Of a DNA stretch of 32,000 nt, positions 8,724 to 28,616 are shown in pieces. This stretch comes from Nitrososphaera viennensis EN76 (lineage in GTDB: Archaea; Thermoproteota; Nitrososphaeria; Nitrososphaerales; Nitrososphaeraceae): positions 2,010,001 through 2,042,000 of the forward strand of contig NZ_CP007536.1 in NCBI RefSeq assembly GCF_000698785.1, given 5' to 3'. Position 1 is the stretch's first letter. Every line of letters starts with the position of its first letter. Both the position numbers and the translations under genes were made by a program. The notes below the pieces were generated by a model. It ran no database searches. It saw only the letters and a list, made by a program, of their open reading frames with translations, and was not told the origin of the DNA.

Positions 8724-8787
8724 TAAAAGAACTAAAACCTACAACTACGCTTGTATTTGTGGTTCACTGGAAACGCGCGCACATGTA
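8724..8787. repeat. Left copy (A) of a ~64-nt inverted repeat
   Basis: The reverse complement of 15588..15651 aligns here. Perfect blocks are 8739-8760 (22 nt) and 8766-8783 (18 nt). Confidence 0.85.
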
Positions 8788-14804: not shown

Positions 14805-15386
14805 ATGTCATCCCCCTTTGATGAATGGTTTTCCAAGCGGCGGAGAGCGTGGTTTCCGGATGTCGACGAGATGATGCGCGACATGGACAAGATGATGGCA
14901 GAAGCTTTCAAGAACTTTGAAAAGCAGGTCCCAAAGAACCTTGTCCGGGAGCGCAAGCTGGACGACGGCTCGACTGTCCGCGAGATGGGGCCCATAGTCT
15001 ACGGTTATTCTGTCAAGATAGGGCCGGACGGCAAGCCGCAGGTGCGCAAGTTCGGCAACATCGACGCGTTCCCGAACCTCCTTGGCGGCGGACTTGCGGT
15101 CAAGGAAGAGCGCGAGCCCCTTGTGGACGTGATAAAGGGCTCTGACGACGTGCGCGTCGTTGCGGAACTTCCAGGCGTCAACAAGGACGACCTGCGCCTG
15201 TCAGCCGACGAGAACTCGGTCACCATCGAGTCGTTGACGGGCGAGCCGCGCTACCGTAAGGTGGTGGACCTTCCAGAGCCGGTGGATCCCAAGACCGCCA
15301 AGTCGACGTACAAGAACGGCGTGCTTGAAGTCACGCTGAAACTTCGGAAAAAGTCAGGCTCGGGCGTCTCTATCCATATAGACTAG
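14805..15386 (+). CDS. hsp20: Small heat-shock protein, Hsp20/alpha-crystallin family
   Basis: Alpha-crystallin domain: PLVDVIKGSDDVRVVAELPGVNKDDLRL...YKNGVLEVTLKL. Confidence 0.9.
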   Translation: MSSPFDEWFSKRRRAWFPDVDEMMRDMDKMMAEAFKNFEKQVPKNLVRERKLDDGSTVREMGPIVYGYSVKIGPDGKPQVRKFGNIDAFPNLLGGGLAVKEEREPLVDVIKGSDDVRVVAELPGVNKDDLRLSADENSVTIESLTGEPRYRKVVDLPEPVDPKTAKSTYKNGVLEVTLKLRKKSGSGVSIHID

Positions 15387-15404
15387 AGCGCGCGCACACA
15401 CAAA

Positions 15405-15442: not shown

Positions 15443-15576
15443 GCGGGGGTCGCCCAGCTTGGTCAAAGGCGTGAGACCGGATCAGAAAATTATCTGGCGC
15501 GATGCTCAGATGTTAGACCAACTGGGATACCTCATTCCTTAGGGATTCGTGGGTTCAAATCCCACCCCCCGCACCA
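15443..15576 (+). tRNA. Class II tRNA, most likely tRNA-Leu, with encoded CCA and ~46 nt of intervening sequence in the anticodon arm (anticodon tentatively CAG)
   Basis: The acceptor stem gcggggg (15443-49) pairs perfectly with cccccgc (15566-72), followed by A and CCA. The T-arm is gtggg-ttcaaat-cccac. The D-arm gcccagcttggtcaaaggc is typical of archaeal tRNA-Leu. A long variable arm is ttcc-tta-ggga. Length is 134 nt versus ~88 expected. Confidence 0.85.
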
Positions 15577-15587
15577 CTTCTTTTACA

Positions 15588-15651
15588 TATGTGTGCGCGC
15601 GTTTCCAGTGGACTACAAATACAAGCGTAGTTGTAGATGTAAGTTCTTTTA
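15588..15651. repeat. Right copy (B) of the ~64-nt inverted repeat, starting 12 nt after the tRNA 3' end
   Basis: 15615-15636 and 15592-15609 are perfect reverse complements of 8739-8760 and 8766-8783. In addition, tgtgtgcgcgcg (15590-15601) is the perfect inverse of cgcgcgcacaca (15389-15400) upstream of the tRNA. Confidence 0.85.
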
Positions 15652-16225
15652 TGGCGGGATTGCCGAGCAGCCTTGGCACACTGGAAAAAAATGGTGTTGG
15701 CCTTGATCCAGCAATTGGCTTTTTGCATGACTTGGCAGAGAGCAAGGAGCCACTAGTATGCGACTTGCAAGAATTATTTAGGTGGCTTGCGGCCTGTCAA
15801 TAATACAATTACTCGAAGAAAAGACGCTAAAGAAATCGGACTTTATGTAACCGAGAACTATCATATCCTGCTCAAAGAGCCGTCTACTGCAAATGCTTTG
15901 ATTGAAAAGCCAAAGTTGAACGTGAATGTAAAGGCGACCTTCAAAGGAAGAATTGCCAGTTATCAAACGATCCTGTACGGCAATGTACAGGTACTCGCAA
16001 AATATTTACTCAACAGAGCGAGCAGCGATGCTGTCTTTTGATATCCCGCCATTGGGCATTACTAGACCTGATACTGTTACTTTACAGCAGCGCATCCTTT
16101 CAATGTCGCCGCAAGAAAGGAAAAGGCGCAGGATCAACAAGTTAACGCTCTGGTACCAAAAGAAAAATCTTGGAGCTGGTAGGAAAATCAAAATCTACAA
16201 TAAAGTCGTCGCCAGGATGGAATGA
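15651..16225 (+). pseudogene. cas1: Cas1-family (CRISPR Cas1 or casposase) gene remnant: 5'-truncated with at least three frameshifts
   Basis: GVGLDPAIGFLHDLAESKEPLVCDLQELFRWLA matches the Cas1 catalytic His/Asp/Glu helix region. The reading then continues in other frames: SIIQLLEEKTLKKSDF (frame 3), YVTENYHILLKEP...SYQTILYGNVQVLAKYL (frame 2), and LSFDIPPLG...SPQERKRRRINKLTLWYQKKNL (frame 3, an HTH-like tail). The N-terminal ~half is absent. Confidence 0.75.
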
Positions 16226-16310
16226 AGGTTATGGCATTCTATCGTCTTGAGGTTGCTGTGCTAGCGGTAATACCCCATTTTACAAAATAATTTCAGGTTG
16301 GCTGCCACAG

Positions 16311-16454
16311 CTAATCGTTGTGCTCAATCCCCAGACTTTTGATGTACCTCGCGAACTCATCATGGTTCTCGATCCTGTAATAACCCATGACCTTTCTAAT
16401 CGTTGGTTCGTCAATACTGATCGAGCTTATTTTGATCTCGTTTTGTTCTGTCAT
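16311..16454 (-). CDS. 47-aa ORF translationally coupled (ATGA) to the oxidoreductase gene; below the ORF-track cutoff
   Basis: MTEQNEIKISSISIDEPTIRKVMGYYRIENHDEFARYIKSLGIEHND. Its ATG (16454-16452) overlaps the TGA of 16451..17500. Confidence 0.3.
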   Translation of the reverse strand: MTEQNEIKISSISIDEPTIRKVMGYYRIENHDEFARYIKSLGIEHND

Positions 16455-17500
16455 TTTGTGCCAACCTCAATTTCGCGCAGCGCAGGCGCGACATGCGTGC
16501 CTAACAATTCGATAGCTCGCATCAACTTTTCGTGAGATAATGACCCTGGATCCATCTGAAAAGTAACGCGGGATATGCCGCCAAGTGCCTTGCTGTGCTG
16601 GATTATCTTCTTGACCACCTCATCCGGATCACCGATTATCAGTGCACCCTTTGGCCCTAGCTGGGCATCAAAGCTAGCGCGCGTGACTGGACGCCAACCA
16701 CGCTCCTTGCCAAATTTGTTCATAGTCCGCACATAACCTGGATAAAAGTCATCGACTGCCTCTTGCGTCGTTTCCGCGACATAGCCCAGTGAATGCAAGC
16801 CTACCTTTAATTGATCAGGTGGATGTCCGGCTCTCCTGCCAGCTTCCCTGTAAAGGTCAATGAGTGGCCGGAATTGGTGAGTTTCGCCGCCTATGACTGC
16901 AACGGCCAATGGAAGTCCAAGCACTCCGGCACGGACGAATGATTCCGGCGTTCCACCAACGCCTACCCATATCGGCAATGGATTCTGCAAGGGCCTTGGA
17001 TAGACTCCCTGTCCAGTCAGGGGAGGCCGGTATTCTCCAGACCAGCGGACATGCTCGTTGTCACGTATCTTTAACAACAGGTCAAGCTTTTCTTCAAAAA
17101 GCGAGTCGTAATCTTCCAGTCGGAAGCCAAACAAGGGAAATGCCTCGATAGACGAGCCACGACCCACAACCATCTCTGCCCTACCCCGCGACAAAAGATC
17201 AAGGGTTGCAAATTCTTGAAACACTCGTACAGGGTCGGCTGCACTCAGTACCGTTACGGCACTGGTGAGCCTTATACTGTTTGTTCTTACGGCCGCCGCT
17301 GCTAGGATGACAGCAGGAGCCGAATCGAGGAATTCCCTGCGGTGGTGTTCACCAATACCAAATACGTCCAACCCAACCTGATCGGCATGTTCAATTAGTT
17401 TTACCAAGTTCTGCAAACGCTCTGATGGGCTAACCACCGCTTGGCTCGCCTCATCAAATGATGCAAAGCTGTCAATTCCAACTTCAATCTTTGAAACCAT
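16451..17500 (-). CDS. Luciferase-like (LLM class) flavin/F420-dependent oxidoreductase
   Basis: LIEHADQVGLDVFGIGEHH...LTSAVTVLSAADPVRVFQEFATLDLLSRGRAEMVVGRGS is typical of the bacterial luciferase-like monooxygenase family. Confidence 0.8.
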   Translation of the reverse strand: MVSKIEVGIDSFASFDEASQAVVSPSERLQNLVKLIEHADQVGLDVFGIGEHHRREFLDSAPAVILAAAAVRTNSIRLTSAVTVLSAADPVRVFQEFATLDLLSRGRAEMVVGRGSSIEAFPLFGFRLEDYDSLFEEKLDLLLKIRDNEHVRWSGEYRPPLTGQGVYPRPLQNPLPIWVGVGGTPESFVRAGVLGLPLAVAVIGGETHQFRPLIDLYREAGRRAGHPPDQLKVGLHSLGYVAETTQEAVDDFYPGYVRTMNKFGKERGWRPVTRASFDAQLGPKGALIIGDPDEVVKKIIQHSKALGGISRVTFQMDPGSLSHEKLMRAIELLGTHVAPALREIEVGTK

Positions 17501-17830
17501 TTCTTATTCTCTTGCCTCCGCCTTCCAACTTGCTTGCACTGAACGCTCTGTACTGGCAAGATTGCGATTTCTATAGCCAAACGAATTTTTTCCAGGCATA
17601 TTATCATAGTAGAGGCATTGATATTTAAGAGGAGTAGCAATATCTTACTAAGTAAGTATGTATTACCAAACATGGTAAGTCCGGAGCTACTACCAGATGC
17701 AACAACGCCGTGCTAGCTTCTTGTACGGAATAGCAAAAACACTCCCGTCTATCAACGTAAATTCAGCAGAATGTGGAGTCTTACCTATACCTCCTCATTA
17801 AGATGGGTCCAATCAAATTTGAATTCCTTT

Positions 17831-17958
17831 ACTAGAAGCCATCTCATAAATAGTCAAATAAGGCAATAGTCGAATAGTTGACCGCTTTGCCTATTAGATT
17901 CTGGCTGCATCTACTACTCAGTTTTTGGTAACGAGCCATTTATGAGATGAGTTCTAGT
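17831..17958. mobile_element. 128-bp MITE-like element or long hairpin with 21-bp terminal inverted repeats
   Basis: actagaagccatctcataaat (17831-17851) versus the reverse complement of 17938-17958 (actagaactcatctcataaat) match at 19/21. It lies in a 600-nt non-coding, AT-rich gap. Confidence 0.45.
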
Positions 17959-17992
17959 AAAAACAAGTGCAAATCCAATCCCTACACCATTA
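17957..17992 (+). repeat. Short direct repeat R1 (partner at 21651..21686)
   Basis: The core gtaaaaacaagNgNaaatccaatcc matches at 23/25, with weaker similarity for ~10 more nt. Confidence 0.6.
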
Positions 17993-18065
17993 TTTGCAAT
18001 GTCTGCGGTTGGTCACGATCGCCGAGCGTAATCAATCGAAGTAGATCAGACAGAACCATCATCAA

Positions 18066-18100
18066 TGAAAAAGAAAATGCGGAGACACAATAGAGTCTCC
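18066..18100 (-). terminator. Hairpin plus T-run 3' of the membrane-protein gene
   Basis: ggagac (18081-86) pairs with gtctcc (18095-100) and overlaps the stop codon. On the minus strand it is followed by gcattttctttttc. Confidence 0.4.
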
Positions 18101-18663
18101 TAGGGGATTGACCGGCTGTACAGCTTGCCTTCGAGTGCCAGTTTGTACATCTCCGCCACATGCGGGTTCCTTGCAGGCATCTCTGAGCCCAGTTCAACAA
18201 GCCTCGCATAGACCCTCACAAGGTATGCCAGCGACCCTATGAGTGCCAGGAATATTCCCATGTTGAAGATCCAGTGCGGAGGGACTGCGAATATCTCTTC
18301 TACGAACCAAAAGTGCCACAGTTCGTTCACTCCAATTGCAAACATCGACGCCGTGTACCCGATAATTGCCATCTTGAGACCTGTGTTCAGCGCGTTTCCC
18401 GGTCCCCTCATGATGGGAACCCGCCTGTCATATATCGCTATTATGCCCCATCCCAAGGGCAATGCTATCAAGGTGCTATACAGCCACCAGTTTGCAGGAG
18501 TGAATGCAGAGTCGCGAATAATCGTCTGGTTCAGAGAGGTGTCCACAAAATAGCCTAGTTCGGCGGAGGCCATCACAGAGATCATGACGATGATCATTAT
18601 GTAGATCCGCTTCAATCTCTGGATTTCAAGCTCTTTTGGTATCAGGGAAGGAATCTGAGCCAT
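18100..18663 (-). CDS. Integral membrane protein of unknown function (~5 predicted TM helices)
   Basis: Repeated hydrophobic ~20-aa stretches: IMIIVMISVMASAELGYFV, WWLYSTLIALPLGWGIIAIY, MAIIGYTASMFAIGV, IFNMGIFLALIGSLAYLV. Confidence 0.6.
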   Translation of the reverse strand: MAQIPSLIPKELEIQRLKRIYIMIIVMISVMASAELGYFVDTSLNQTIIRDSAFTPANWWLYSTLIALPLGWGIIAIYDRRVPIMRGPGNALNTGLKMAIIGYTASMFAIGVNELWHFWFVEEIFAVPPHWIFNMGIFLALIGSLAYLVRVYARLVELGSEMPARNPHVAEMYKLALEGKLYSRSIP

Positions 18664-18792
18664 CGGCTTCCATCATCTCTCATAGTCATTATTCTTGGTC
18701 AGAAATAATAAACTCTGATTAACCATGTAAATTAACAAGGTTATGCATATGACAATCCGCTGCACACCCGCTTTAATTTCGAGACAAATTGG

Positions 18793-18822
18793 CTGCACAG
18801 AAACCACAGATCACGCCGCTTC
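18793..18822 (+). repeat. 30-nt direct repeat (partner at 21850..21879)
   Basis: 26/30 identical, including the perfect 14-mer gatcacgccgcttc. Both copies lie 25-50 nt 3' of minus-strand stop codons. Confidence 0.65.
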
Positions 18823-18870
18823 ATCGGCGACCCTGTAGGCTACTTTTCGATTCCTCTCTCCCTGAAATTT

Positions 18871-19719
18871 CTACAGGTTTGCGGCATCATCGAAGGTATT
18901 GCAGGAATTGACGTCGCCAGATTCCAGTCCCTTCTGGAACCAGCTTACCCTCTGGGCCGAGCTTCCGTGCGTAAAAGAGTCGGGCGTTACCGTGCCCTGC
19001 GACTCCATCTGGAGCCGGTCATCTCCGATGCTGCTTGCAGCATTCAGGCCTTCCTCTATGTCGCCCTGCTCAAGGATGTTTGCCCTGTCGGCGTTGTGCG
19101 CCCAGACGCCCGCAAAGCAATCTGCCTGCAGCTCCAGCATGACGGAGAGCCTGTTCGCGTCGACTCCGCCCAGCCTCTGCTGCGCGCCCTGGACCTGCTC
19201 CATGATGCCGAGCTGGTTCTGCACGTGGTGCCCCACCTCGTGAGCGATGACGTATGCCTCGGCAAAGTCGCCTGGGGCGTTGAACCTCTCCTTGAGGTCC
19301 CTGTAAAAGCTCAGGTCTATGTACACCTTCTCGTCAATTGGGCAGTAAAAAGGCCCGATTGCGGATTGGGCGAACCCGCACGAGGATTCGACCGCCCCGG
19401 AGAACAAAACAAGCGTGGGCTCCCGGTAATCGCGGTTGTAAGCGGCAAATATCTCGTTCCACGTGTCTTCCGTATCTGCAAGCACGACAGACACGAAATC
19501 GCCAAGCTCCTTGTCTTCCTCAGAAAGAGGGGCGGGATTGACGCCTGTGGTAGTAGTAGCAGGCATGTTGTTAAAGACCGCGCCGGGGTCGGCGCCCAGC
19601 AGAAGTGCCATTACGAGTACTATGAGGCCGCCTATTCCTCCCCCGATGGCCTTCATGGGAAGCCCCATCCCTCTCCTGTCTTCGATATTTGAGCTCCTTC
19701 TGCCCTTTCTCCATCGCAT
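18871..19719 (-). CDS. Putative neutral zinc metallopeptidase (YpfJ-like), membrane-anchored
   Basis: N-terminal RRSSNIEDRRG plus a TM helix, then an HExxH site (AHEVGHHVQNQLG) and LQADCFAGVWA. This layout is characteristic of the bacterial YpfJ family. Confidence 0.8.
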   Translation of the reverse strand: MRWRKGRRSSNIEDRRGMGLPMKAIGGGIGGLIVLVMALLLGADPGAVFNNMPATTTTGVNPAPLSEEDKELGDFVSVVLADTEDTWNEIFAAYNRDYREPTLVLFSGAVESSCGFAQSAIGPFYCPIDEKVYIDLSFYRDLKERFNAPGDFAEAYVIAHEVGHHVQNQLGIMEQVQGAQQRLGGVDANRLSVMLELQADCFAGVWAHNADRANILEQGDIEEGLNAASSIGDDRLQMESQGTVTPDSFTHGSSAQRVSWFQKGLESGDVNSCNTFDDAANL

Positions 19720-19850
19720 TTGCCTGTTGTTCTCTTTGACTAGGCTTTTCGAGTATCTAAGCTAGCCAGTAACTTGTTATCTGTAGGAAATTCTAGCTTC
19801 AAAACGCAACTTGTGTGTTTCAAGCGGCAAACAACTTTGCAAAGTCATAC

Positions 19851-20254
19851 TCAAACACATTGCAGCTTTTCCGGTAGTTCTCCACCATGGTGATCATCAT
19901 CATCCCCATCTTCAGTATCTGGGCCCAAACACTTTACATAAGTCGCAATCGGCACATAGTCTGAATCAATAACCACTGTTATTTTCGCTCCGCGAGAATC
20001 CTCGCCAAAGTATGGGCTCTTTGTTATGACATGCTGAACTACTGCTTCAGCATCCAGATGCTTGAGCTTGTCAAGTGTCTCTGCATTTCTATCTAACACG
20101 CTGAAGCCATTCCCTGCATATTTGTCATAAGCCTCCTTTGCGATCGCAAGGTTGTGTGCAACACTCCACGGTCGGTCATTTCCCTAAACTCCTCTTCCGT
20201 GGTAGAATGGCCTGGCAGCAATTGCAGAGTCTGCTCCAGTGCCGGGTTTGTCAT
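19851..20254 (-). pseudogene. Hypothetical gene apparently split by a frameshift (53-codon 5' ORF plus 82-codon 3' ORF)
   Basis: The ATG at 20254 opens MTNPALEQTLQLLPGHSTTEEEFREM..., which stops at 20095-20093 (tag, minus strand), just inside the downstream ORF. The downstream ORF frame is open back to ~20186 (GNDRPWSVAHNLAIAKEAYDKYAGNGFS-VLDRNAE...) but has no start before the GTG at 20099. Confidence 0.35.
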
Positions 20255-20508
20255 GGTTTCTCCTGTCGGACGATGGGGCCAGGAGCCCTGAACTGTGTTA
20301 GAAGATGGTAGAGTAAAAAAATAGAATAATCATGAATGAAATGCTTGCAAGACCAGCTACGCCAGCAGCAATAGGCAGTCTATTTGGCACAGGTTAGCAA
20401 CGTTTTCTCTTGCTTTTGTGCCTTTGGTTATGCCGTCACAAGCACTCCGTCACACTGTTATGACGCTGCTGACTATATTCCGACAGCCATTAGAAAATAA
20501 GGCTCTAG

Positions 20509-20742
20509 TCAATCTCCTTTCTTCTTCTTTCGCCGGCGCTTTGCAAAAGCCCCTCCTACAATAACCCCTAATGCGCCATCAGGATTTATGAAGCTTGCAC
20601 AACCTGCATTGTTAGGATCGACATAAGCCATATCCCGGAACTTTTGATCTTTGTTGTTGTCGTGCACTCTTTTGTGCTTCTTCAGCCGTTCTTCTGTCGG
20701 TAATTTTGCTTGGCATATGTTGCACCTGTAAACCTTGTCCAT
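20509..20742 (-). CDS. Small classical C2H2 zinc-finger protein with a poly-basic C-terminal tail
   Basis: YRCNICQAKLPTEERLKKHKRVH is an exact (F/Y)-x-C-x2-C-x12-H-x3-H pattern. The C-terminus is KRRRKKKKGD. Confidence 0.65.
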   Translation of the reverse strand: MDKVYRCNICQAKLPTEERLKKHKRVHDNNKDQKFRDMAYVDPNNAGCASFINPDGALGVIVGGAFAKRRRKKKKGD

Positions 20743-20916
20743 CTAGACACGCGACCATTGTACGCGGTGGAAGATAAATGCCACCCAAATTCTAACATCA
20801 ATCGCGACACCCTCATCAGAAGGATCGCCAAAAGAAAAAAAATATTATTCGGCAATCCACGTAAAACTAAGAATTACTACATAATAGCCGCGACAGCGTC
20901 CGACTATTTCGGCCGT

Positions 20917-21549
20917 TTGGGTAAAAGCTCAAAAGAAGAGGCAGGTAGAGAAATTGGCATCGTGAGCCTTCTTTTGTCCGTTGGGACAGGACTCGCAGCC
21001 GGAGCCATCCTCATAGTACTTCTTTCTGCCACTATAAGCAATCAGGTCGTCGATATGAACCGCGATGATGTCAACTGGATGCCTCGCACCAGCCAGCAAT
21101 CCCTTCCAGCAGAATTCCGAATAATCTACCAACATGGAGTAGGGCTCGATTATACACTTGAAGTGGAAAACAACAATGGACAGGCACGGTTCTCTGCTAC
21201 AACATGCAACAGCCCGATAAACGTGCGCCACGCCACACTCGTATTGTCTCAGCAAGAACTGGAACGCATATGGCTGTCCATTCAAGAGAATGACTTTTTT
21301 GGCCTCACGGAGGACTTTACAAAAGAGTGTCCTGACTTTGGCGGCAAGTGCGTCATACGAGAACCTTCCAATAGAATAGTGCTAGAGGTGGCGGCGGACG
21401 GGAAGACAAAGAGGATAGGCTTTGATGAAAATTATGCATTAAATCATGATAATGCAGAGCTGGACAGGTTTATGCAAGTTGTAAATACGATCCAAGGTGT
21501 CCTAGATGATTATGAGAACCTGCCAGAATCTGGCTGTGCTTATGTGTAA
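20917..21549 (+). CDS. Membrane-anchored or exported hypothetical protein
   Basis: The ORF-track start (20710) overlaps the opposite-strand zinc-finger gene. In-frame TTG 20917 or GTG 20962 precede the TM segment VSLLLSVGTGLAAGAILIVLLSA. The domain has four Cys and no recognised motif. Confidence 0.5.
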   Translation: MGKSSKEEAGREIGIVSLLLSVGTGLAAGAILIVLLSATISNQVVDMNRDDVNWMPRTSQQSLPAEFRIIYQHGVGLDYTLEVENNNGQARFSATTCNSPINVRHATLVLSQQELERIWLSIQENDFFGLTEDFTKECPDFGGKCVIREPSNRIVLEVAADGKTKRIGFDENYALNHDNAELDRFMQVVNTIQGVLDDYENLPESGCAYV

Positions 21550-21650
21550 GGAGCGTCAAACTCCTCCCCGTCAATCAACATAAAACGTCAAAATCTTTCC
21601 GCTATCTGTACCTCATTTCCATAATGGTGCCGGCTGAATTTGAACTGCTT

Positions 21651-21686
21651 GTAAAAACAAGCGTAAATCCAATCCTGCATCATTTA
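21651..21686 (+). repeat. Short direct repeat R2 (partner at 17957..17992)
   Basis: See R1. It contains the small palindrome cttgtaaaaacaag. Confidence 0.6.
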
Positions 21687-21705
21687 ATTATAAAACCTCT
21701 ATTGT

Positions 21706-21758
21706 CAAAAAGAGAAAAAACCCGCCAAGCTTGCAGGGCTGGCATGGAGCTTGGCGGG
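21706..21758 (-). terminator. Strong GC hairpin followed by a T-run on the minus strand (bacterial-style intrinsic terminator shape)
   Basis: cccgccaagct (21721-31) pairs with agcttggcggg (21748-58), a perfect 11-bp stem. The minus strand continues ttttttctcttttt. It lies ~150 nt 3' of the 21904 stop. Confidence 0.5.
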
Positions 21759-21849
21759 CAGTGTCTGGTTGGTATATGCACCTGCATTTGAGCTTGAAAA
21801 CGATATAACGCAATTCAAACACGCATCCTTGCCAAGAACTGCGAATTAT

Positions 21850-21879
21850 CTGCGCACAAACCGCGGATCACGCCGCTTC
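21850..21879 (+). repeat. 30-nt direct repeat (partner at 18793..18822)
   Basis: 26/30 identical, with a perfect 14-mer gatcacgccgcttc. Confidence 0.65.
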
Positions 21880-21903
21880 GCCCAAAACCGGCGGCAGTGT
21901 TTG

Positions 21904-22098
21904 TCAGACAACAACGCTGCTGCTGTCTGCAGAAGGAGGGTGGACGTGGGTCGAGTCGTCAACGCTGCCGCAATTCCTGCAGTGCCATCTGAAAGGCTCC
22001 TGACAAAACCTGCAGGTCCGAGTCACCGAAAAAGCATGGCCGCACGCCCTGCAGCTGGCCTTGTTGTAGCTTGTAGTCGTTATCATTGCTGTTGTCAT
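21904..22098 (-). CDS. Cys-rich mini-protein (three CxxC pairs plus HxH), zinc-ribbon-like
   Basis: SCRACGHAFSVTRTCRFCQEPFRWHCRNCGSVDDSTHVH. Its ATG overlaps the upstream stop (ATGA at 22095-22098). The opposite-strand 140-aa ORF is Arg/Ala-rich and typical of an antisense artefact. Confidence 0.5.
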   Translation of the reverse strand: MTTAMITTTSYNKASCRACGHAFSVTRTCRFCQEPFRWHCRNCGSVDDSTHVHPPSADSSSVVV

Positions 22099-22391
22099 GC
22101 TGCGTGGCCGGCGCGGCTTTTCGCCCTGCCTTCAGGCGTGAATTCCAGCACCACTCCACTGTTGGCACTGTAGTCAAACGTGTATCTCTCGTTGGGCGAT
22201 ATTGGCATGCCTTCCACCGCTGCTGCGTTGCACGACGGGCAGCTGCCTGCCGCAAAGCCGGGATCGAGGCAGGACGCGCACCAAAAGCATTCGTTGCAGA
22301 TCAGAAATCGCGCTTGCCTTGTTGCACTCCTTTCCGGTTTTGCCAATAGATCAAGCATGGCATTTTTTTTGCATTCAAGGGATTTATTCAC
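22095..22391 (-). CDS. Cys-rich small protein (C-x2-C-x2-C-x2-C ... C-x2-C) of unknown function
   Basis: FLICNECFWCASCLDPGFAAGSCPSC is followed by a beta-rich segment ERYTFDYSANSGVVLEF. It starts 53 nt downstream of the comA-like gene on the same strand. Confidence 0.5.
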   Translation of the reverse strand: MNKSLECKKNAMLDLLAKPERSATRQARFLICNECFWCASCLDPGFAAGSCPSCNAAAVEGMPISPNERYTFDYSANSGVVLEFTPEGRAKSRAGHAA

Positions 22392-22444
22392 CCCTGAATG
22401 TGCCAGTCAGGCATGAAATGCGCAATTATGGCGCAATGCCTCCG

Positions 22445-23431
22445 CTATAGCCACACCGACTGCACCGGCGCGTACATCTTTTTCCTTGCGTCGTCAAGGC
22501 TGCTGCGCTCTATTATCAAGCCCTGGCTCTTGAGGTCCTCGACCGCGCTCTGGACAGTCCTCCTTGGCAGGCGGCTCATCTCCATCAGCTCCACCTGGTC
22601 TATCGGGTGCTTTGACTTTATTATGAAATAGACGAATTTGGCCGCCGGCCCTCCCTCCGGGTCCTTGCGCAGGTACGACACGCCAAACGACGCCTTGGAT
22701 GGAAAGCCCCTCCTCTGCGACTCTATCGACGACACCGCGTCGATGTGGATCTCGGCAAGGTTGACGCGCTGGCCAAACTCTGCCAGGAGCGCCGACTGCT
22801 GGTGCTCAAGGGGAGCCTCGAAGATGAACGTGGTCGGCGGGTACTTGGCCGTGAGCGCCCCGACGGAATTCCATCTCACCGCGCCCTTTTCGTCGTATAT
22901 GCCGACGCTGACGCCCTCGTTTGCCTCAAGCACCACCTTGTCAGAGCCCAGCTTGACTGCATCCTCCACCTTGGCTATGGTCGCGTCGATGGAGAGCTGG
23001 TGCCGGGGGTCCTTCTTGCCCACCTTCCACTGGAAATCAAGGTTCCTTGCCAGGATCGTGTCGGTCAGCTTTTTCTTTTGCTCAAACGTCAAGTCGATGC
23101 CGTTTTCGCCTATCTCGATGATGTCAAATCCGACCCTTGCCGCGTCGCCCACAAACTTGTCAAACGCGTTTTCAGACACCATGTACTCGGAGATGGTGCT
23201 CCCGGTAGACACCTTGACGCCGAGGTCCTGGTAGAATTTTATCTTTTTTTGCAGCACGGGCTCGGAAAGCAGGAGCGGCAGGACGCCATAGATCTTGACT
23301 GCGTCGATAAACGGCGCAAGCGCCTCAAAGTTCTCCTTGTCGAGCCCTTGCAGCTTGTCTATCACGTACGTCCTGCCCTCCTTGCGGGGCTTTTTGACGT
23401 CGACCCTGTTCTTTACATAGCTCTCTAGCAA
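22445..23431 (-). CDS. comA: Phosphosulfolactate synthase (ComA) family domain fused to a C-terminal winged-helix DNA-binding domain
   Basis: ComA-like blocks: KPRKEGRTYVIDK, IDAVKIYG, GFDIIEIGENGIDL, VVLEANEGVSVGIYDEKG, FIFEAPLEHQQSALLAEFGQRVNLAEI. Then ~80 extra aa follow: IDQVELMEMSRLPRRTVQSAVEDLKSQGLIIERS..DDARKKMYAP (MarR/ArsR-style wHTH). TTG start. Confidence 0.75.
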   Translation of the reverse strand: MLESYVKNRVDVKKPRKEGRTYVIDKLQGLDKENFEALAPFIDAVKIYGVLPLLLSEPVLQKKIKFYQDLGVKVSTGSTISEYMVSENAFDKFVGDAARVGFDIIEIGENGIDLTFEQKKKLTDTILARNLDFQWKVGKKDPRHQLSIDATIAKVEDAVKLGSDKVVLEANEGVSVGIYDEKGAVRWNSVGALTAKYPPTTFIFEAPLEHQQSALLAEFGQRVNLAEIHIDAVSSIESQRRGFPSKASFGVSYLRKDPEGGPAAKFVYFIIKSKHPIDQVELMEMSRLPRRTVQSAVEDLKSQGLIIERSSLDDARKKMYAPVQSVWL

Positions 23432-23587
23432 TTCCGATAATGTATATGCAAGATGTGCGCCTATTTTGAACTTGTGAACTGTGCGGATCCTGCACTTTTT
23501 CCCCGGATTCTACCGTGAACCTGCGCCTTTCTTGCATTTTTTGCATCGTTGCCAGCAGTATTAACCCGTCCGGGACAGGGAAAAGGC

Positions 23588-24682
23588 ATGAACAACAAGA
23601 TCAAGTTCGGAATAGCTGCGGCCATAATAGTCGCAGTCATTGCCACTTCCGTACCCCTTGTTCTGGGATCGCAAGCGGCCAAGTCTGATTCAGCTCAAGG
23701 TCAGGCGGCAGCTTCTCAGCAACAACAGCAGCAGGAATCAAAGGTGCTCAGGATCGGGTACTTTCCAAACATCAACCACGCGCAGGCGGTGATAGGGCTT
23801 GGAAATGGCGACTTTCAAAAGGCGCTTGGGAGCAACGTCGAGGTCAAGACGCAGGTGTTCAACGCCGGGCCGTCTGCCATAGAGGCCCTCTTTGCAAAGC
23901 AGGTCGACATAACCTACATCGGGCCAAACCCGGCGATAAACGGGTACGTCAAGTCTGACGGGCAGGGGCTGCGGATCGTGTCCGGGGCCGCTAGCGGGGG
24001 CGCGGTGTTTGTGGTGCGGAACGACTCTGGCATAAACTCGCCGGCGGATTTTGCAGGCAAAAAGTTTGCGTCGCCGCAGCTTGGCAACACGCAGGACGTG
24101 GCGCTGCGCAAGTACCTGCTTGAAAACGGCTACAAGACGAAGGAAAACGGCGGAAACGTCGAGGTCATTCCTGCTGCAAACGCAGACATCCTCGCGCTCT
24201 TTTTGAAAAAAGAGATTGACGGCGCATGGGTGCCTGAGCCCTGGGGAGCCAAGCTTGTCAAGGAGGGCGGCGGACGCATATTCCTTGACGAGCGGGACCG
24301 GTGGCCCGGCGGCCAGTTCGTCACGGCGCACATCATCGTCAGCACCGACTATCTGAAGAACAACCCTGATGTCGTCAAGAAGGTGATTGCGGCCAACGTG
24401 GACGAGACAAAGTGGATTAACGATCACCCTGATGAGGCGCTCAAGGTGTACAACGCGGAGCTGAAAAAGCTGACCGGCAAGACCATACCTGAAGACGAGT
24501 ACAAGGCCGGCACCTCAAGGCTGACGCTCACGTACGACCCTGTGAAGGACTCGCTCTTCCAGTCTGCAAGCGACGCGCACGACATCGGCTTTTTGAAGGA
24601 AAACCCGGACCTTTCCGGAATATACGACCTGACGCTGCTGAACGAGGTGCTCGGGGAGAAGGGGCTGCAGCAGATAAGCTGA
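23588..24682 (+). CDS. ABC transporter substrate-binding protein, NitT/TauT (aliphatic sulfonate/nitrate/taurine, NMT1-like) family
   Basis: The ATG at 23588 gives MNNKIKFGIAAAIIVAVIATSV (signal anchor) and a Q-rich linker. Then LRIGYFPNINHAQAVIG...IEALFAKQVDITYIGPNPAING...SPQLGNTQDVALRKYL, which is SsuA/TauA-like. Confidence 0.8.
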   Translation: MNNKIKFGIAAAIIVAVIATSVPLVLGSQAAKSDSAQGQAAASQQQQQQESKVLRIGYFPNINHAQAVIGLGNGDFQKALGSNVEVKTQVFNAGPSAIEALFAKQVDITYIGPNPAINGYVKSDGQGLRIVSGAASGGAVFVVRNDSGINSPADFAGKKFASPQLGNTQDVALRKYLLENGYKTKENGGNVEVIPAANADILALFLKKEIDGAWVPEPWGAKLVKEGGGRIFLDERDRWPGGQFVTAHIIVSTDYLKNNPDVVKKVIAANVDETKWINDHPDEALKVYNAELKKLTGKTIPEDEYKAGTSRLTLTYDPVKDSLFQSASDAHDIGFLKENPDLSGIYDLTLLNEVLGEKGLQQIS

Positions 24683-24700
24683 CTGATTCTCTACGGCCAC

Positions 24701-24750
24701 TCTCTCTCCCCCTCCCTCTCCCTCCTCTTCTTTTTTCCTCCCTTTTTCTT
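24701..24750 (+). repeat. 50-nt uninterrupted polypyrimidine (C/T only) tract, a possible terminator or attenuator inside the ABC transporter cluster
   Basis: tctctctccccctccctctccctcctcttcttttttcctccctttttctt begins 19 nt after the SBP stop. It sits within a 214-nt gap before the ATPase gene. Confidence 0.6.
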
Positions 24751-24896
24751 ATTTATTCCCACCATGAAATTCCAGCATCTGACGCCAGACTGCCCTTGAA
24801 ATGTATGCAATGATCATGCCAAAACTGCATAAATGATGCCACAGTTGCACCTTTGAAGTGGGTTATATCCGATGCATCCATGTCTCTGTTCCATAT

Positions 24897-25751
24897 ATGT
24901 CTCTGAACGAACAACCACCGCAGGAGCAGAAAGAAGAAGACCATCATCATCGCCACAACAATGTTGTCCTGGAACTGAGGGACGTCTCCAAGGCATTCTC
25001 GCATGAAGGCAGGGCGGACCGGCACAGGGTGCTTGACAGGATCAACCTTGACGTGAAACAAGGGGAATTTGTCACGATAGTGGGGCCGTCTGGATGCGGC
25101 AAGAGCACGCTTTTGAGCATCGTGGCCGGCCTTGACGCGCCCGACTCGGGCCTGGTTTCAGTCAGGGGAGAAAGCAGCAGCGGCGGAGGAAGAAAGGCGC
25201 AGAGGGTCGTGATATTCCAGGAAGGCGCGCTGTTCCCGTGGCTCACCGTTTCTGACAACGTCGAGTTCGGGCTGAAGGTGGCCGGCGTCCCAAAGGAGTC
25301 AAGAAAGGCGGCGGCAAGCCGCTTTATCGAGATGGTGCAGCTGACAAAGTTTGCGGGCTCGTACGTCTACCAGCTGTCCGGCGGCATGAAGCAGCGCGTG
25401 GCAATAGCGCGCGCCCTTGCGCTTGACCCGCAGGTCCTGCTCATGGACGAGCCCTTTGCCGCGCTCGACGTGCAGACCCGGGACATACTGCACGAGCAGC
25501 TGTTGCAGATCCACCAGTCGACCGGCAAGACCGTACTGTTCGTCACGCACAACATCAATGAAGCGGTGCTGCTGGGCGACAGGATAATCGTGCTCTCGCC
25601 AAGGACGGGAAACATCAAGAAAGAGATCGTAGTCGACCGCCCGAGGCCCCGGGACATCGAGAGCCACGAAATAAGCGCGATCCGCAGGGAGCTTTTGCGG
25701 GAGCTGGAGGAGGACTTTCAAATTGCAAGAAGCCACAGTCGGCAAGGCTAG
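24897..25751 (+). CDS. ABC transporter ATP-binding protein (SsuB/TauB/NrtD-like)
   Basis: Walker A GPSGCGKST, signature LSGGMKQR, Walker B LLMDEPFAALD. The start is uncertain: ATG 24897 is chosen, and GTG 24858 is in the ORF track. Confidence 0.9.
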   Translation: MSLNEQPPQEQKEEDHHHRHNNVVLELRDVSKAFSHEGRADRHRVLDRINLDVKQGEFVTIVGPSGCGKSTLLSIVAGLDAPDSGLVSVRGESSSGGGRKAQRVVIFQEGALFPWLTVSDNVEFGLKVAGVPKESRKAAASRFIEMVQLTKFAGSYVYQLSGGMKQRVAIARALALDPQVLLMDEPFAALDVQTRDILHEQLLQIHQSTGKTVLFVTHNINEAVLLGDRIIVLSPRTGNIKKEIVVDRPRPRDIESHEISAIRRELLRELEEDFQIARSHSRQG

Positions 25752-26556
25752 CAACAGCATTATCAAGAAGACAAAAAGCCGGTTCGACACCACGGACGCG
25801 GCAAACGCCTTTCTGTTCATTGCCGCGTTCATCGGCGTCTGGCAGCTTGTCTTTTCGCTAGGGATATGGCCCAAGGTCCTGATGCCCTCGCCGGCAATGG
25901 TGGCGCAGACTATAGCCGGCCTGGTGGCAGACTCTTCCCTGACGGTGGGAATGGGAGTCACGATGTGGAGGCTGTTTGCAGGGTTTGCGATATCTGTGGG
26001 CATCGGCGGGGCGGTGGGGCTTGCGATGGTCAAGTTCCCAAGCTTTGGCAAGACCCTCAGCTCGTTTGCAGTGGGCCTGCTCACCTTTCCAAGCATTGCC
26101 TGGGTGCCGTTTTCGATACTGCTCATCGGCTTTAACGACTTTGGCATACTCTTTGTGCTTGTCATGGCCTCGGTGTTTTCGGTGATGATATCCACCTACA
26201 GCTCGATCCGCAACATCCCTCCCCTCTACATCAGGGCCGCAAAAAACATGGGCGCAAGCGGCTTTTCGCTGTTCAGGTATGTCATGATACCGGCCGCCAC
26301 TCCTTCATTGATGATCGGGCTCAGGCAGGCATGGTCGTTTGCGTGGCACGCCCTGATAGGCGCCGAGATACTGATAACTACCCTGTACGGGCTTGGCCAT
26401 GTGCTCCACATAGGCAGGGAGTTCCAGGACATGGGGCAGATAATCGCCGTCATGATCGCGATCTTTGCCATCGGCCTGCTCTTTGACCGGCTGGTGTTCA
26501 TGAAGCTGGAAGAGAAGGTCCGGGCAAGGTGGGGCCTGGACCAGCACAGCCAGTGA
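25723..26556 (+). CDS. ABC transporter permease (SsuC/TauC-like)
   Basis: Six hydrophobic segments in a BPD-transporter-type layout. The TTG start overlaps the ATPase gene by 29 nt, so the start is uncertain. Confidence 0.8.
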   Translation: MQEATVGKASNSIIKKTKSRFDTTDAANAFLFIAAFIGVWQLVFSLGIWPKVLMPSPAMVAQTIAGLVADSSLTVGMGVTMWRLFAGFAISVGIGGAVGLAMVKFPSFGKTLSSFAVGLLTFPSIAWVPFSILLIGFNDFGILFVLVMASVFSVMISTYSSIRNIPPLYIRAAKNMGASGFSLFRYVMIPAATPSLMIGLRQAWSFAWHALIGAEILITTLYGLGHVLHIGREFQDMGQIIAVMIAIFAIGLLFDRLVFMKLEEKVRARWGLDQHSQ

Positions 26557-26607
26557 TAATAATAGCGCCGCGATCTCCTTAATTATTCTGGCCGCGTTAT
26601 CTCATCC

Positions 26608-27447
26608 ATGAATTCCAAGTCCGCTGCCAAGATAGGCGGCATAGCGGCCATAGCGGCCGCAGTCGCCGTCGCGGTATGGATTGGCACGCAACAGAGCGAC
26701 AGCGCGCAAAGCAACGTCAGCATGCTTGGAACCGGTACAGATGTATCAAAAGTCGAGACTTCTACGGTCGAATATTACAACAACACGTCGGGATTTCTTG
26801 CCAAGCCGGCAGGCGATGGCAGGTACCCCGGCATCGTCATGATCCACGAGTGGTGGGGGCTGAACGACAACATCAAGGACATGGCCCGGCAGATGGCGTC
26901 GGAAGGGTACGTCGTGCTTGCGGCAGACCTGTACAAGGGGCAGGTGGCAACGGAGAGCTCGCAGGCGCAGCCGCTTGCCGCAGGCGTTCGGAACAACCCT
27001 GGCGAGGCGGTAAAGAACGTGCAGGCCGCGGTCAGCTACCTGCGCAACAGCGACTCTGTCGGAGGCAACAAGGTGGGATCGCTTGGGTGGTGCTTTGGCG
27101 GCGACTGGTCGCTCCAGCTTGCGCTGAACGAAAAGATGGACGCGACCGGAATATACTACGGCAGGCTCGTCACCGATCCAGAGGCGCTGTCCGTGATAAA
27201 GTGGCCGGTGCTCGGCGTCTTTGGAAGCGCGGACCAGTCGATACCTGTGGAGCAGGTAAACGCGTTCAAGCAGGCGCTTGACAAGAACGGCATAGAAAAC
27301 GAGGTCTACATATACGAGGGCGTGGGGCACGCGTTTGCAAACCCGTCAGGGGCCAACTATGCGCCGGAGGAGACAAAGGACGCGTGGCAAAAGACGCTTG
27401 CGTTCTTTGACAAGCACCTGAAGGGCGAAGAAGTAACAGCAGCCTAG
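26608..27447 (+). CDS. Dienelactone hydrolase family protein with an N-terminal signal anchor
   Basis: PGIVMIHEWWGLNDNIKDMARQMASEGYVVLAADLY, a nucleophile motif GWCFGG, and a C-terminal GVGHAF. Confidence 0.85.
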   Translation: MNSKSAAKIGGIAAIAAAVAVAVWIGTQQSDSAQSNVSMLGTGTDVSKVETSTVEYYNNTSGFLAKPAGDGRYPGIVMIHEWWGLNDNIKDMARQMASEGYVVLAADLYKGQVATESSQAQPLAAGVRNNPGEAVKNVQAAVSYLRNSDSVGGNKVGSLGWCFGGDWSLQLALNEKMDATGIYYGRLVTDPEALSVIKWPVLGVFGSADQSIPVEQVNAFKQALDKNGIENEVYIYEGVGHAFANPSGANYAPEETKDAWQKTLAFFDKHLKGEEVTAA

Positions 27448-28295: not shown

Positions 28296-28358
28296 TATAT
28301 GTCATGCGGTACAAGTCCCGAAAATGGGTTTTAATACCGTCCATGCGCACAACCTTGC

Positions 28359-28616
28359 ATGAGCGCAACAGCAACAGCAGTAGAATATTACAACAGAAAG
28401 TTTGGCGACAGCGCCCAGGCCGCGTTCATACACCTGGTACGCGAGATAGGCGAGATCGCTTTTGCTATGGAAAAGCAGAACGCCGAGCACGCCAAACTAG
28501 AGATAACCGAGTCGATAGCACTCCTCCACTACCTTGCGGCAAAATACAACCTTGACGTCCCGGCAAGCATGCAGGCTCTCTACTCCAAAAAGCTGGAAGC
28601 TCTCAAGGCCAAATGA
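28359..28616 (+). CDS. Small MazG-like nucleotide pyrophosphohydrolase-fold protein
   Basis: HLVREIGEIAFAMEK...EITESIALLHYLAAKYNLDV resembles the MazG E-x2-E/helix pattern. The assignment is tentative. Confidence 0.5.
   Translation: MSATATAVEYYNRKFGDSAQAAFIHLVREIGEIAFAMEKQNAEHAKLEITESIALLHYLAAKYNLDVPASMQALYSKKLEALKAK

Follow-up and report, generated by a model that had tools for sequence, protein, structure and literature searches.

Probable remains of a family-2-type casposon beside a tRNA-Leu gene of Nitrososphaera viennensis

The window analysed here, a stretch of 32,000 nucleotides from the Nitrososphaera viennensis EN76 chromosome, contains a broken gene of the Cas1 family just behind a tRNA-Leu gene. 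The question is what kind of Cas1 this was and how it came to lie there. NCBI gives a 50-aa piece of it (15651-15803, WP_084790797.1) the product name 'CRISPR-associated endonuclease Cas1'. Casposons, on the other side of the question, are self-synthesizing transposons that integrate by means of a casposase, a Cas1 homolog to which an HTH domain has been added at the C-terminus. The original prediction, made from the letters of the sequence, proposed either a casposon relic at a tRNA target or a stranded cas1 fragment. The analysis points strongly to the first: the locus is very probably a dead casposon of the family-2 type, left over from an insertion at the 3' end of tRNA-Leu(CAG) in the N. 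viennensis lineage.

The recognisable gene fragment lies at 15690..16225 on the forward strand, with its stop codon at 16223-16225, and covers approximately residues 234-414 of a protein of about 414 residues. The signature GLDPAIGFLH...DLQELFRW can be read directly in the sequence, and a 198-aa frame-corrected translation matches Pfam Cas_Cas1 with E 1.3e-13 over profile positions 208-273 of 283, which bears out the Cas1 catalytic-helix signature noticed originally. The whole window was scanned with a family profile HMM of 59 members, which found four collinear pieces in frames 0, 2, 1 and 2, all on the forward strand: 15690-15788 (HMM 234-266), 15794-15847 (HMM 269-286), 15820-16020 (HMM 278-344) and 16010-16216 (HMM 340-408). 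HMM positions 1-233, the N-terminal half that had been reported missing, have no match anywhere in the window. The original prediction started the homolog at 15651, but homology can be recognised only from about 15690. The spacer between (15652..15689, forward strand), which separates a 60-nt element described below from the first alignable casposase codon, matches neither the casposase HMM nor the 60-nt repeat, and the deletion breakpoint falls here. In a related relic from another species (L060), its counterpart is diverged and 20 nt shorter.

Lesions in the fragment were placed by DNA alignment with the L060 relic. One nucleotide is lost at 15789/15790, another is lost at 15846/15847, and there is a net gain of one at about 16016-16030, in agreement with the three frame switches predicted near 15795, 15846 and 16030. 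Four assemblies carry the fragment with the same sequence, one an NCBI genome, one an ENA metagenome assembly and two from Logan. Around 15637, L004 (SRR33649888) shows an alternative junction. Since identical lesions appear in independent assemblies, they are not sequencing errors, as had been allowed for. The catalytic His (GFLH) and the DxxE Asp/Glu region are retained, and the N-terminal domain with the catalytic Glu (the NYGYAILESE Glu region) is missing. The fragment is a pseudogene that does not have the full active site (Glu, His, Asp, Asp). It probably has no function now, because the N-terminal domain and the catalytic Glu are gone and what is left cannot be translated as one protein. 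Partition of the gene by its own integration, as in SSV-type integrases, was considered and rejected: there is no N-terminal half in the window, and the intact relatives are transposons bounded by terminal inverted repeats (TIRs) and target-site duplications (TSDs).

The best match of the fragment in the PDB is 6opm, the M. mazei casposase, at 87 bits (E 1e-23), and the alignment spans both the catalytic helices and the C-terminal HTH. The part coding for the HTH, a casposase-specific domain, lies at 16079..16222 on the forward strand (TLQQRILSMSPQERKRRRINKLTLWYQKKNLGAGRKIKIYNKVVARME) and aligns with the HTH domain in the C-terminal region of 6opm (ILSISYVDWKKLGFSKGTLHYMKQN), so the C-terminal tail was rightly read as an extra HTH of the casposase type. 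Identity to the M. mazei casposase is 34% over the shared region. CRISPR Cas1 structures match with E 4e-6 or worse, the best of them at 29.8 bits, which gives the casposase a lead of about 57 bits over any of them. NCBIfam models of CRISPR subtypes score 16-39 bits against cut-offs of 300-560. In a neighbour-joining tree, the fragment groups with homologs from the Nitrososphaera clade (P0001-P0006), to which it is 57-63% identical, and homologs it clusters with occur in elements that bear PolB. The casposase HTH, residues 342-406, is essential (PMC6977970); a C-terminal HTH of casposases is also defined in PMC4046053, and CRISPR Cas1 is without such an HTH. A PolB-family HMM also cross-matches the HTH region of the fragment (E 3.5e-4), because PolB has a homologous C-terminal HTH. 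No Pfam HTH family matches this region. An AF2 model of the homolog P0005 shows three short helices at the HTH with low confidence (pLDDT 52 overall), and was judged too poor for a fold search. On these alignments the fragment is assigned to the casposases and not to CRISPR Cas1.

The fragment and CRISPR-associated Cas1 share the alpha-helical catalytic domain, the GFLH His and the DxxE motif, but the relic has an HTH and no cas2 or array nearby, and the similarity is much weaker than that to the casposase. To our knowledge, CRISPR-associated Cas1 is always linked to cas2 and an array. Array scans found no CRISPR-like array in the window, and no cas2, other cas gene, polB or integrase is among its annotated genes. 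PolB is also absent from the window by tblastn and profile search, and profile search found no trace of p164 or p170 there. The reported absence of array, cas2 and polB therefore held up under each of these searches.

The neighbour of the fragment is a genuine tRNA-Leu(CAG) gene at 15443..15576 on the forward strand, with an encoded CCA and two introns at 15476-15503 (28 nt) and 15512-15529 (18 nt). ARAGORN with default settings and Rfam at its gathering thresholds do not detect it. With introns allowed, ARAGORN reports a class II tRNA in this position with a mis-assigned anticodon; once both introns are excised, the sequence folds into a clean tRNA-Leu(CAG) cloverleaf. The exons and the CTCAGAT anticodon loop are conserved at five orthologous loci, where both introns vary in length and sequence. 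The casposase fragment begins 113 nt downstream of this gene.

In M. mazei, the casposase joins the element ends 14 bp apart, so that 14 bp of the target are duplicated, the final 4 bp of the tRNA among them; the duplicated sequence is CGCA, the end of tRNA-Leu, plus an AT-rich stretch (PMC6977970). The window has a candidate copy of such a target site at 15570..15583 on the forward strand (proximal site CGCACCACTTCTTT). It consists of CGCA, the last 4 nt of the tRNA body, and ten T-rich bases (CCACTTCTTT), and conforms to the M. mazei rule for family 2. With the tRNA-Leu confirmed as well, the suggested integration site at a tRNA 3' end finds good support. No second copy of the TSD was found in the window, where six distal matches at up to 3 mismatches compare with 3.4 expected and none stands above chance, nor is there a direct repeat of the tRNA 3' end.

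Five orthologous Hsp20-tRNA-Leu loci in other Nitrososphaera have neither the fragment nor the 60-nt element and are therefore empty sites, which answers the check proposed for the tRNA-Leu locus in relatives. In loci L071-L077, the order Trx-GrpE-DnaK-DnaJ-Hsp20-tRNA-Leu(CAG) is kept, with neither sequence present. The DNA downstream of tRNA-Leu(CAG) is rearranged in every genome compared.

A total of 56 genome loci with relatives of the casposase were collected, and about 25 of them carry PolB, p164, p170 and the casposase. The nearest full-length relatives sit in elements of 5-14 kb with a family-B polymerase, bounded by TIRs of about 50 nt that begin GGGGTATATA and by perfect TSDs of 14-16 nt that overlap the last 4-5 nt of tRNA genes. 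The PolB of the relatives has the motifs YMDTDS and KIIANTASYG, and p164 has two weak HNH matches. Such elements occur in several copies within single genomes. Three relatives bounded by TIRs and TSDs have no PolB and carry damaged casposases: L042 (5.6 kb), L053 (5.3 kb) and L080 (7.1 kb). Truncation of the 5' part just upstream of GLDP recurs in many relics, and this is partly an artefact: the genome scan picked up only sequences with motifs at residues ~258-279, and the conserved GLDPxxGFLH block is where alignments anchor. Residual homology is found farther upstream of GLDP in L053 and L061.

Between the target site and the fragment lies a conserved 60-nt element. Its copy B, at 15592..15651 on the forward strand, is composed of a hairpin (CTACAAATAC/GTAGTTGTAG), a core (TTTCCAGTGGAC) and an end (TTCTTTTATGG); it follows the predicted 14-nt target site at a distance of about 10 nt, and 39 nt separate its end from the first casposase codon that can be aligned. 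Copy A, at 8724..8783 on the reverse strand, is inverted relative to copy B and 91.7% identical to it over 60 nt (E 3e-18). Copy A, the only repeat partner of copy B in the window, lies 6.8 kb away on the upstream side of the tRNA and faces away from it. It is flanked by a 99-aa ORF and the eIF-2beta gene and is not accompanied by any casposase sequence. A search with a 20-mer from the core returned one JGI metagenome contig (L070), in which copy A is conserved at the orthologous site; IMG/VR contained neither the 20-mer core nor the casposase clade. The 60-nt element belongs to the inserted DNA.

This element was evaluated as the left TIR of the casposon, an attractive possibility in view of its short distance from the target site and its inverted copy, and was set aside as the leading idea. 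The stretch 15585-15651, where a left TIR would be expected, is unrelated to the TIR of L080, an element of the same clade (GGGGTATATACAAG...), and no such motif occurs in the window; the inverted copy faces the wrong way and has no matching TSD. No inverted repeat brackets the fragment, and no terminus of the clade type (GGGrTATA...) is present anywhere in the window. The original prediction had noted that the break in the gene coincides with the inverted-repeat copy B. That copy is real; since it is unlike the terminal inverted repeat of the clade, the break beside it is no evidence of a casposon end.

The L060 relic has an identical truncation and also adjoins the 60-nt element, here beside tRNA-Leu(UAG). 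The two relics are about 72% identical in DNA and 52% in protein, and the core of the element is identical at 36 of 36 positions. Their flanks are unrelated on both sides, and their lesions differ, which indicates independent decay.

Altogether, the casposase with its HTH, the CGCA target at tRNA-Leu, the casposon relatives and the empty sites favour a casposon relic at a tRNA target, the first of the two options raised originally. The casposon is inferred from one gene fragment and its position, as PolB, p164 and p170 have left no trace in the window. In the proposed sequence of events, a family-2-type casposon would have integrated at the 3' end of tRNA-Leu(CAG). One or more later deletions would have removed the polymerase, the accessory genes and the N-terminal ~233 codons of the casposase, and with them the canonical inverted repeats of both ends and the far copy of the target duplication. 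What remained of the casposase gene would then have gained two 1-nt deletions and one +1 insertion. Several observations count against this account. A TIR of the clade type and a second TSD copy are absent from the window, the sequence in the place of a left TIR is unrelated to that of L080, and the same truncated architecture stands beside another tRNA-Leu isoacceptor in L060, for which a single decay in situ is insufficient.

The L060 observation can be accommodated if one ancestral insertion decayed and recombination between tRNA-Leu isoacceptors then swapped the downstream flanks, which is possible though on the unlikely side. Over their 44-nt 3' halves the two tRNAs are identical except for 1 position, which offers ample homology for recombination, the region downstream of the tRNA is rearranged in every genome compared, and the differing lesions fit a long independent decay from one truncated ancestor. 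The discriminator base is followed by CCA in the window and its orthologs but by CTA in L060, so any crossover would lie outside the tRNA body, and the account depends on the other tRNA-Leu loci of both genomes.

The relic may instead be a non-autonomous deletion derivative: a unit of the 60-nt element plus the casposase 3' half, truncated before its arrival, would have been mobilised in trans by an intact casposase elsewhere and inserted separately at two tRNA-Leu genes. The junction of the 60-nt element with codon ~233 is found at tRNA-Leu(CAG) in the window and at tRNA-Leu(UAG) in L060, with unrelated flanks and different lesions. Truncated or frameshifted casposases are known from PolB-less relatives with TIRs and TSDs (L042, L053, L080), and artificial mini-casposons move in trans in M. 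mazei (PMC10359463). This reading is doubtful all the same: the right side of the unit shows no inverted repeat or TSD in either the window or L060, the 60-nt element is unlike the TIRs of the clade, and relics that are ~72% identical in DNA and 52% in protein, set against a core identical at 36/36, fit poorly with a recent common mobile source.

It is very unlikely that the fragment came as cargo of a larger tRNA-targeting island (15.6-28.4 kb) moved by a tyrosine integrase. The distance from the tRNA to the PfkB-thermosome block is 12.8 kb in the window and 1.7 kb in L075, the G+C is lower (0.45-0.53) over 15.5-22 kb, an orphan amoC and an LLM oxidoreductase with a paralog at least 90% identical elsewhere in the genome lie there, and at a different locus of N. 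viennensis the att site of a conjugative element is tRNA-Leu-like (PMC6563490). Against this, an integrase gene and a direct repeat of the tRNA 3' end are both missing from the window, Krupovic et al. record no integrated element here (PMC6563490), and the relic abuts the tRNA in the exact geometry of a casposon target.

N. viennensis has CRISPR-Cas systems elsewhere in its genome (PMC6563490). A stranded CRISPR-associated cas1 fragment from a lost CRISPR-Cas locus, the other option of the original prediction and the one implied by the NCBI name, is nevertheless effectively refuted by the bit-score lead of the casposase, the HTH, the NCBIfam scores below cut-off, a window free of array and cas2 or other cas genes, and homologs linked to PolB, TIRs and TSDs.

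Among known elements, the remnant most resembles the M. mazei family 2 casposons (MetMaz-C1 and MetMaz1FA1A3-C2; 6opm), which have the same Cas1 fold with a C-terminal HTH and the same target, the tRNA-Leu 3' end with CGCA and AT-rich sequence. Its intact relatives are also like them, with TSDs of 14-16 nt on the last 4-5 nt of the tRNA, TIRs starting GGG(G)TATA (that of MetMaz-C1 begins GGGATATAGG), a PolB with C-terminal HTH and a probable HNH protein. The relic differs in its 34% identity, in its soil ammonia-oxidising thaumarchaeal host and in having lost polymerase, TIRs, second TSD and N-terminal half; this comparison is by homology and position. NitNCS1-C1, compared by description, likewise has a thaumarchaeal host, a tRNA target (tRNA-Pro) and a family-2-type gene set, with a fragmented PolB and signs of decay, although decay has gone much further in the relic in the window. 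Family 1 casposons, represented in Nitrosopumilus by NitAR1-C1 and relatives, also live in thaumarchaea and encode an integrase of the Cas1 family. Their usual target is the EF-2 gene, their PolB is protein-primed, and PMC8464041 and PMC4046053 describe their casposases as having no HTH, whereas the relic has one and adjoins a tRNA.

A 2019 survey of thaumarchaeal mobile elements reported no casposon in N. viennensis, and across the phylum it counted a single one of family 2 (PMC6563490). With the remnant, N. viennensis, the model ammonia oxidiser of soils, joins the hosts of family-2-type casposons, and the public name 'CRISPR-associated endonuclease Cas1', which here marks a casposon fossil, is due for correction. 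By the related loci collected here, casposons that target tRNAs and bear the HTH, many of them decayed, are common in genomes of Nitrosopumilus, Nitrosotalea, Nitrososphaera and DPANN archaea, and their distribution bears on the spread of the transposon lineage ancestral to CRISPR adaptation. The relic is real yet ordinary for such elements, and as it probably has no present function, its biological importance is modest.

The 60-nt element might have a function in cis, either moving together with casposon-derived DNA or having been recruited from it. We hold this only tentatively, as a rather improbable reading suggested by the core that is 36/36 identical while the adjacent relics are ~72% identical, by the lone inverted copy and by the absence of the element from the empty sites. 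It could possibly be the recognition end of an unrecognised non-autonomous casposon derivative that targets tRNA-Leu, or possibly a putative protein-binding site maintained by the host, the latter because of its ORB-like TTCCAGTGGA core. A role as host terminator or processing signal of the tRNA was rejected: the element is absent from the five orthologous tRNA loci, shuffled sequence folds as well as it does (z 0.4 to -0.4), and the terminator scan was negative. It was also rejected as an origin recognition box (ORB). In archaeal replication origins, copies of the full consensus (CTTCCAGTGGAAACGAAAGGGGT) form pairs around an AT-rich stretch, no more than a few hundred bp apart and mostly next to orc1/cdc6; the element shares only TTCCAGTGGA, with the G-string missing and 10 of 23 consensus positions contiguous, its copies are 6.8 kb apart, and the window has no orc1/cdc6. 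The cumulative GC skew of the window peaks at ~15.5-16 kb, where it coincides with a switch in gene orientation.

The casposase relic lies on the + strand at 15690-16225, beside tRNA-Leu(CAG). Its Cas1 signature, GLDPAIGFLH...DLQELFRW, is in one forward frame of 15560-16320, as first noticed, and continues in the other two. The frame-corrected 198-aa translation matches Pfam Cas_Cas1 (E 1.3e-13, profile positions 208-273 of 283) and TIGR00287 cas1 (E 3e-12, under the model cut-off, as expected of a fragment). Across the whole window, a profile HMM of the casposase family, built from 59 members, matched four collinear + strand pieces in frames 0/2/1/2: 15690-15788 (HMM 234-266), 15794-15847 (269-286), 15820-16020 (278-344) and 16010-16216 (340-408). 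HMM positions 1-233 matched nowhere in the window, so the N-terminal half is indeed missing. The original prediction placed the gene at 15651-16225, and only the start has to be moved, since homology begins at about 15690. Alignment with a related relic shows 1 nt lost at 15789/90, 1 nt lost at 15846/47 and a net +1 at ~16016-16030, where the frame switches had been predicted. The frameshifts are not sequencing errors, as was once allowed for, because NCBI, ENA and two Logan assemblies all have the same DNA across the first two. In the family alignment the relic keeps the catalytic His and DxxE motif, and the Glu-bearing NYGYAILESE segment and entire N-terminal domain are gone.

A piece of the relic carries the NCBI name "CRISPR-associated endonuclease Cas1", and a stranded cas1 fragment was the other reading initially proposed. 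Of all PDB sequences, the Methanosarcina mazei casposase 6opm matches best (E 1.1e-23, 87 bits), aligned from the GLD/GFLH helix through chain residue 405, whereas the top-scoring CRISPR Cas1 reached 29.8 bits. The final ~65 aligned residues, ILSMSPQERKRRRINKLTLWYQKKN in the relic and ILSISYVDWKKLGFSKGTLHYMKQN in 6opm, correspond to the C-terminal HTH domain that had been suspected here. This domain is described as specific to family 2 casposases (Krupovic et al., PMC4046053), comprises residues 342-406 and is needed for integration (Hickman et al., PMC6977970). The family 1 thaumarchaeal casposases, as described in PMC4046053 and PMC8464041, lack the HTH domain, in contrast to the relic. The relic is what remains of a family-2-type casposase gene: its 3' half, as a pseudogene. 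As originally stated, the window has no CRISPR array, cas2 or polB, and none of its genes encodes a Cas protein, an integrase or Orc1/Cdc6.

A large protein database held 23 homologs at 49-65% identity, many of them truncated ORFs on long contigs. A genome-collection scan gave 56 loci, multi-copy in some genomes, in Nitrosopumilus, Nitrosotalea, Nitrosarchaeum, Nitrosotenuis, Nitrososphaera, Micrarchaeota, Nanoarchaeota and one Methanocellaceae MAG. The full-length casposase of these relatives has ~414 aa, and about 25 loci share a core of PolB, a ~164-aa protein (p164), a ~170-aa protein (p170) and casposase. The PolB (929 aa, family B; motifs LDCTSTYPT, KIIANTASYG and YMDTDS) has a C-terminal HTH similar to that of the casposase, and p164 has two independent HNH matches, both sub-threshold. 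At eleven loci, perfect 14-16-nt direct repeats, 5.3-13.7 kb apart, take in the 3'-terminal 4-5 nt of a tRNA gene for Glu, Pro, Arg or Ser, and just within them are ~50-nt inverted repeats starting GGGGTTATATATA, GGGATAATGC or GGAATATAG. MetMaz-C1, a family-2 casposon of M. mazei, has a terminal inverted repeat (TIR) starting GGGATATAGG (PMC10359463) and a 14-nt target-site duplication (TSD) in which the final 4 bp of tRNA-Leu are used again (PMC6977970). Given these TIRs and TSDs at tRNA ends and the likeness to MetMaz-C1, the clade behaves as family-2-type casposons, which together with the PDB scores supports the casposon-relic interpretation of the original prediction. Three loci (L042, L053 and L080) are bounded by TIR/TSD and have no PolB, and their casposases are truncated or frameshifted. 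In an NJ tree, the relic of the window groups with six homologs, P0001-P0006 (57-63% identity), in a Nitrososphaera clade.

Family-2-like casposons seem to be common, and present in several copies, in MAGs of Nitrosopumilus, Nitrosotalea and Nitrosarchaeum and in Micrarchaeota and Nanoarchaeota (loci L014-L069; for example L020:4820-11050, L031:4168-12672 and L038), with an HTH-bearing casposase, PolB and TIRs starting GGGGTATATA. Archaeal DPANN and Nitrosarchaeum examples have tRNA-end TSDs; no adjoining tRNA was found for the Nitrosopumilus copies. A single family-2 casposon was known from Thaumarchaeota by 2019, and in that year's survey of integrated elements of thaumarchaea, N. viennensis has neither a casposon nor an element at this locus (PMC6563490). 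The relic is a newly recognised example of an already known element type, and its biological interest is modest. The independent casposase relics of the window and of L009, L050, L055, L058 and L060 (residues ~224-240) have apparent starts at most ~15 codons upstream of GLDPxxGFLH, and two of these relics are intact ORFs: P0012 (185 aa) and P0014 (182 aa). This clustering of starts is in part ascertainment and alignment anchoring, and may also mean that breaks are favoured there or that the C-terminal half is retained.

The relic follows Trx, GrpE, DnaK, DnaJ, Hsp20 and the tRNA. Hsp20 (14805-15386) is identical to AIC16665.1/WP_075055383.1 of Nitrososphaera viennensis, and the window's DNA is also in NCBI assembly GCA_024760425.1 (CP103305.1, ~2.01-2.03 Mb) and several metagenome assemblies. 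Default ARAGORN and Rfam gathering thresholds gave no tRNA in the window. ARAGORN with introns allowed gave a class II tRNA at 15443-15576 with an implausible anticodon, and removing two introns (15476-15503 and 15512-15529) leaves a clean tRNA-Leu(CAG) with A73 and encoded CCA, so the predicted tRNA-Leu is real. In five orthologous loci all exons are conserved, the CTCAGAT anticodon loop among them, and neither intron is constant in length or sequence; this comparison strongly supports the two-intron model. In Nitrososphaera (window, L071-L076) the introns are at non-canonical positions, about 30/31 and 38/39, with lengths of 17 to 30 nt across species. The gene ends ...CCCCCGCA-CCA, then CTTCTTT, so CGCACCACTTCTTT (15570-15583) matches the M. 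mazei target form: CGCA plus an AT-rich stretch, 14 bp. A perfect 12-nt inverted repeat surrounds the gene (15389-15400 / 15590-15601, GCGCGCGCACAC / GTGTGCGCGCGC-type, (CG)n(CA)n vs (TG)n(CG)n), so leader and trailer could pair. The arm on the trailer side forms the 5' edge of the 60-nt element region and varies between strains (CTCTTTTATACTCGCATGTGTGCGCG in contigs L005 and L006); insertion-free orthologous loci have no expanded leader tract.

For comparison, Hsp20 orthologs at 77-86% identity were retrieved with their contigs, all of which keep the order Trx-GrpE-DnaK-DnaJ-Hsp20-tRNA-Leu(CAG). Directly after the tRNA each has a different, unrelated sequence: the DNA downstream of tRNA-Leu(CAG) is a rearrangement hot spot. 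The five orthologous tRNA-Leu(CAG) loci, with neither casposase fragment nor 60-nt element, are the empty sites that the original prediction looked to. One contig, L075, returns to the window gene order at the PfkB-thermosome block, so that 12.8 kb of the window (15578-28360) equals 1.7 kb there. The window holds no trace of PolB, p164 or p170, no clade-type TIR, no inverted repeat on both sides of the relic, and no second tRNA end or target-site copy above chance. With PolB, TIR and second TSD absent, the casposon is known only from half a gene, rightly placed. At tRNA-Leu(CAG) the relic records an old integration of a casposon, one confined to the N. viennensis lineage.

The 60-nt element (15592-15651) lies between target site and relic and is missing from the empty sites, so it belongs to the inserted DNA. 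An inverted copy, with 91.7% identity to it, is at 8783-8724, between eIF-2beta and a 99-aa ORF, and a related metagenome contig has this copy conserved in the corresponding place. On contig L060, from a different species of Nitrososphaera, a tRNA-Leu(UAG) with one intron is followed by a CGCA+T-rich site, the 60-nt element and a casposase relic. The element core is identical (36/36) and the relic is truncated at the same point; its lesions differ (a His-to-Arg change, an in-frame stop and two other frameshifts), and neither flank is related to the window. Element and relic at two tRNA-Leu genes may be a non-autonomous derivative mobilised in trans, or may reflect flank exchange between tRNA-Leu genes. 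The element is conserved far above the adjoining pseudogene, does not resemble the TIR of the same-clade casposon L080, and has a predicted fold no more stable than shuffled sequence; it may also be an exapted or unrelated small repeat. Its likeness to archaeal origin recognition boxes (ORBs) is confined to TTCCAGTGGA (15603-15612 and 8763-8772), the core of the ORB consensus CTTCCAGTGGAAACGAAAGGGGT; the G-string is missing. The cumulative GC skew of the window has its maximum at ~15.5-16 kb, and the genes change orientation there too. Logan contig L004 (SRR33649888) carries the window's sequence unchanged across the tRNA and ~45 nt into the element, turns into unrelated sequence GGTTCTGTTGAATCTTCGGGTGTTGGAAT at window position 15637, and then ends (L004:5251-5319 vs window 15592-15665). 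This suggests a structural variant in that sample, and the junction could be an alternative one or a further copy of the element.

Near the relic, the opposite strand carries a luciferase-like (LLM) flavin oxidoreductase (16451-17500), an orphan amoC (Pfam AmoC, 18100-18663) and a Zn-peptidase, the first two in a lower-G+C stretch downstream of the relic. The amoC/LLM stretch is missing from the syntenic region of L075, and the LLM oxidoreductase has a paralog at least 90% identical elsewhere in the N. viennensis genome. Two intergenic direct-repeat pairs, each spaced about 3.1-3.7 kb, lie around the amoC/Zn-peptidase region (17954-17981 / 21648-21675, 28 nt, 89%; 18787-18822 / 21844-21879, 36 nt, 83%) and may be duplicated upstream regions.
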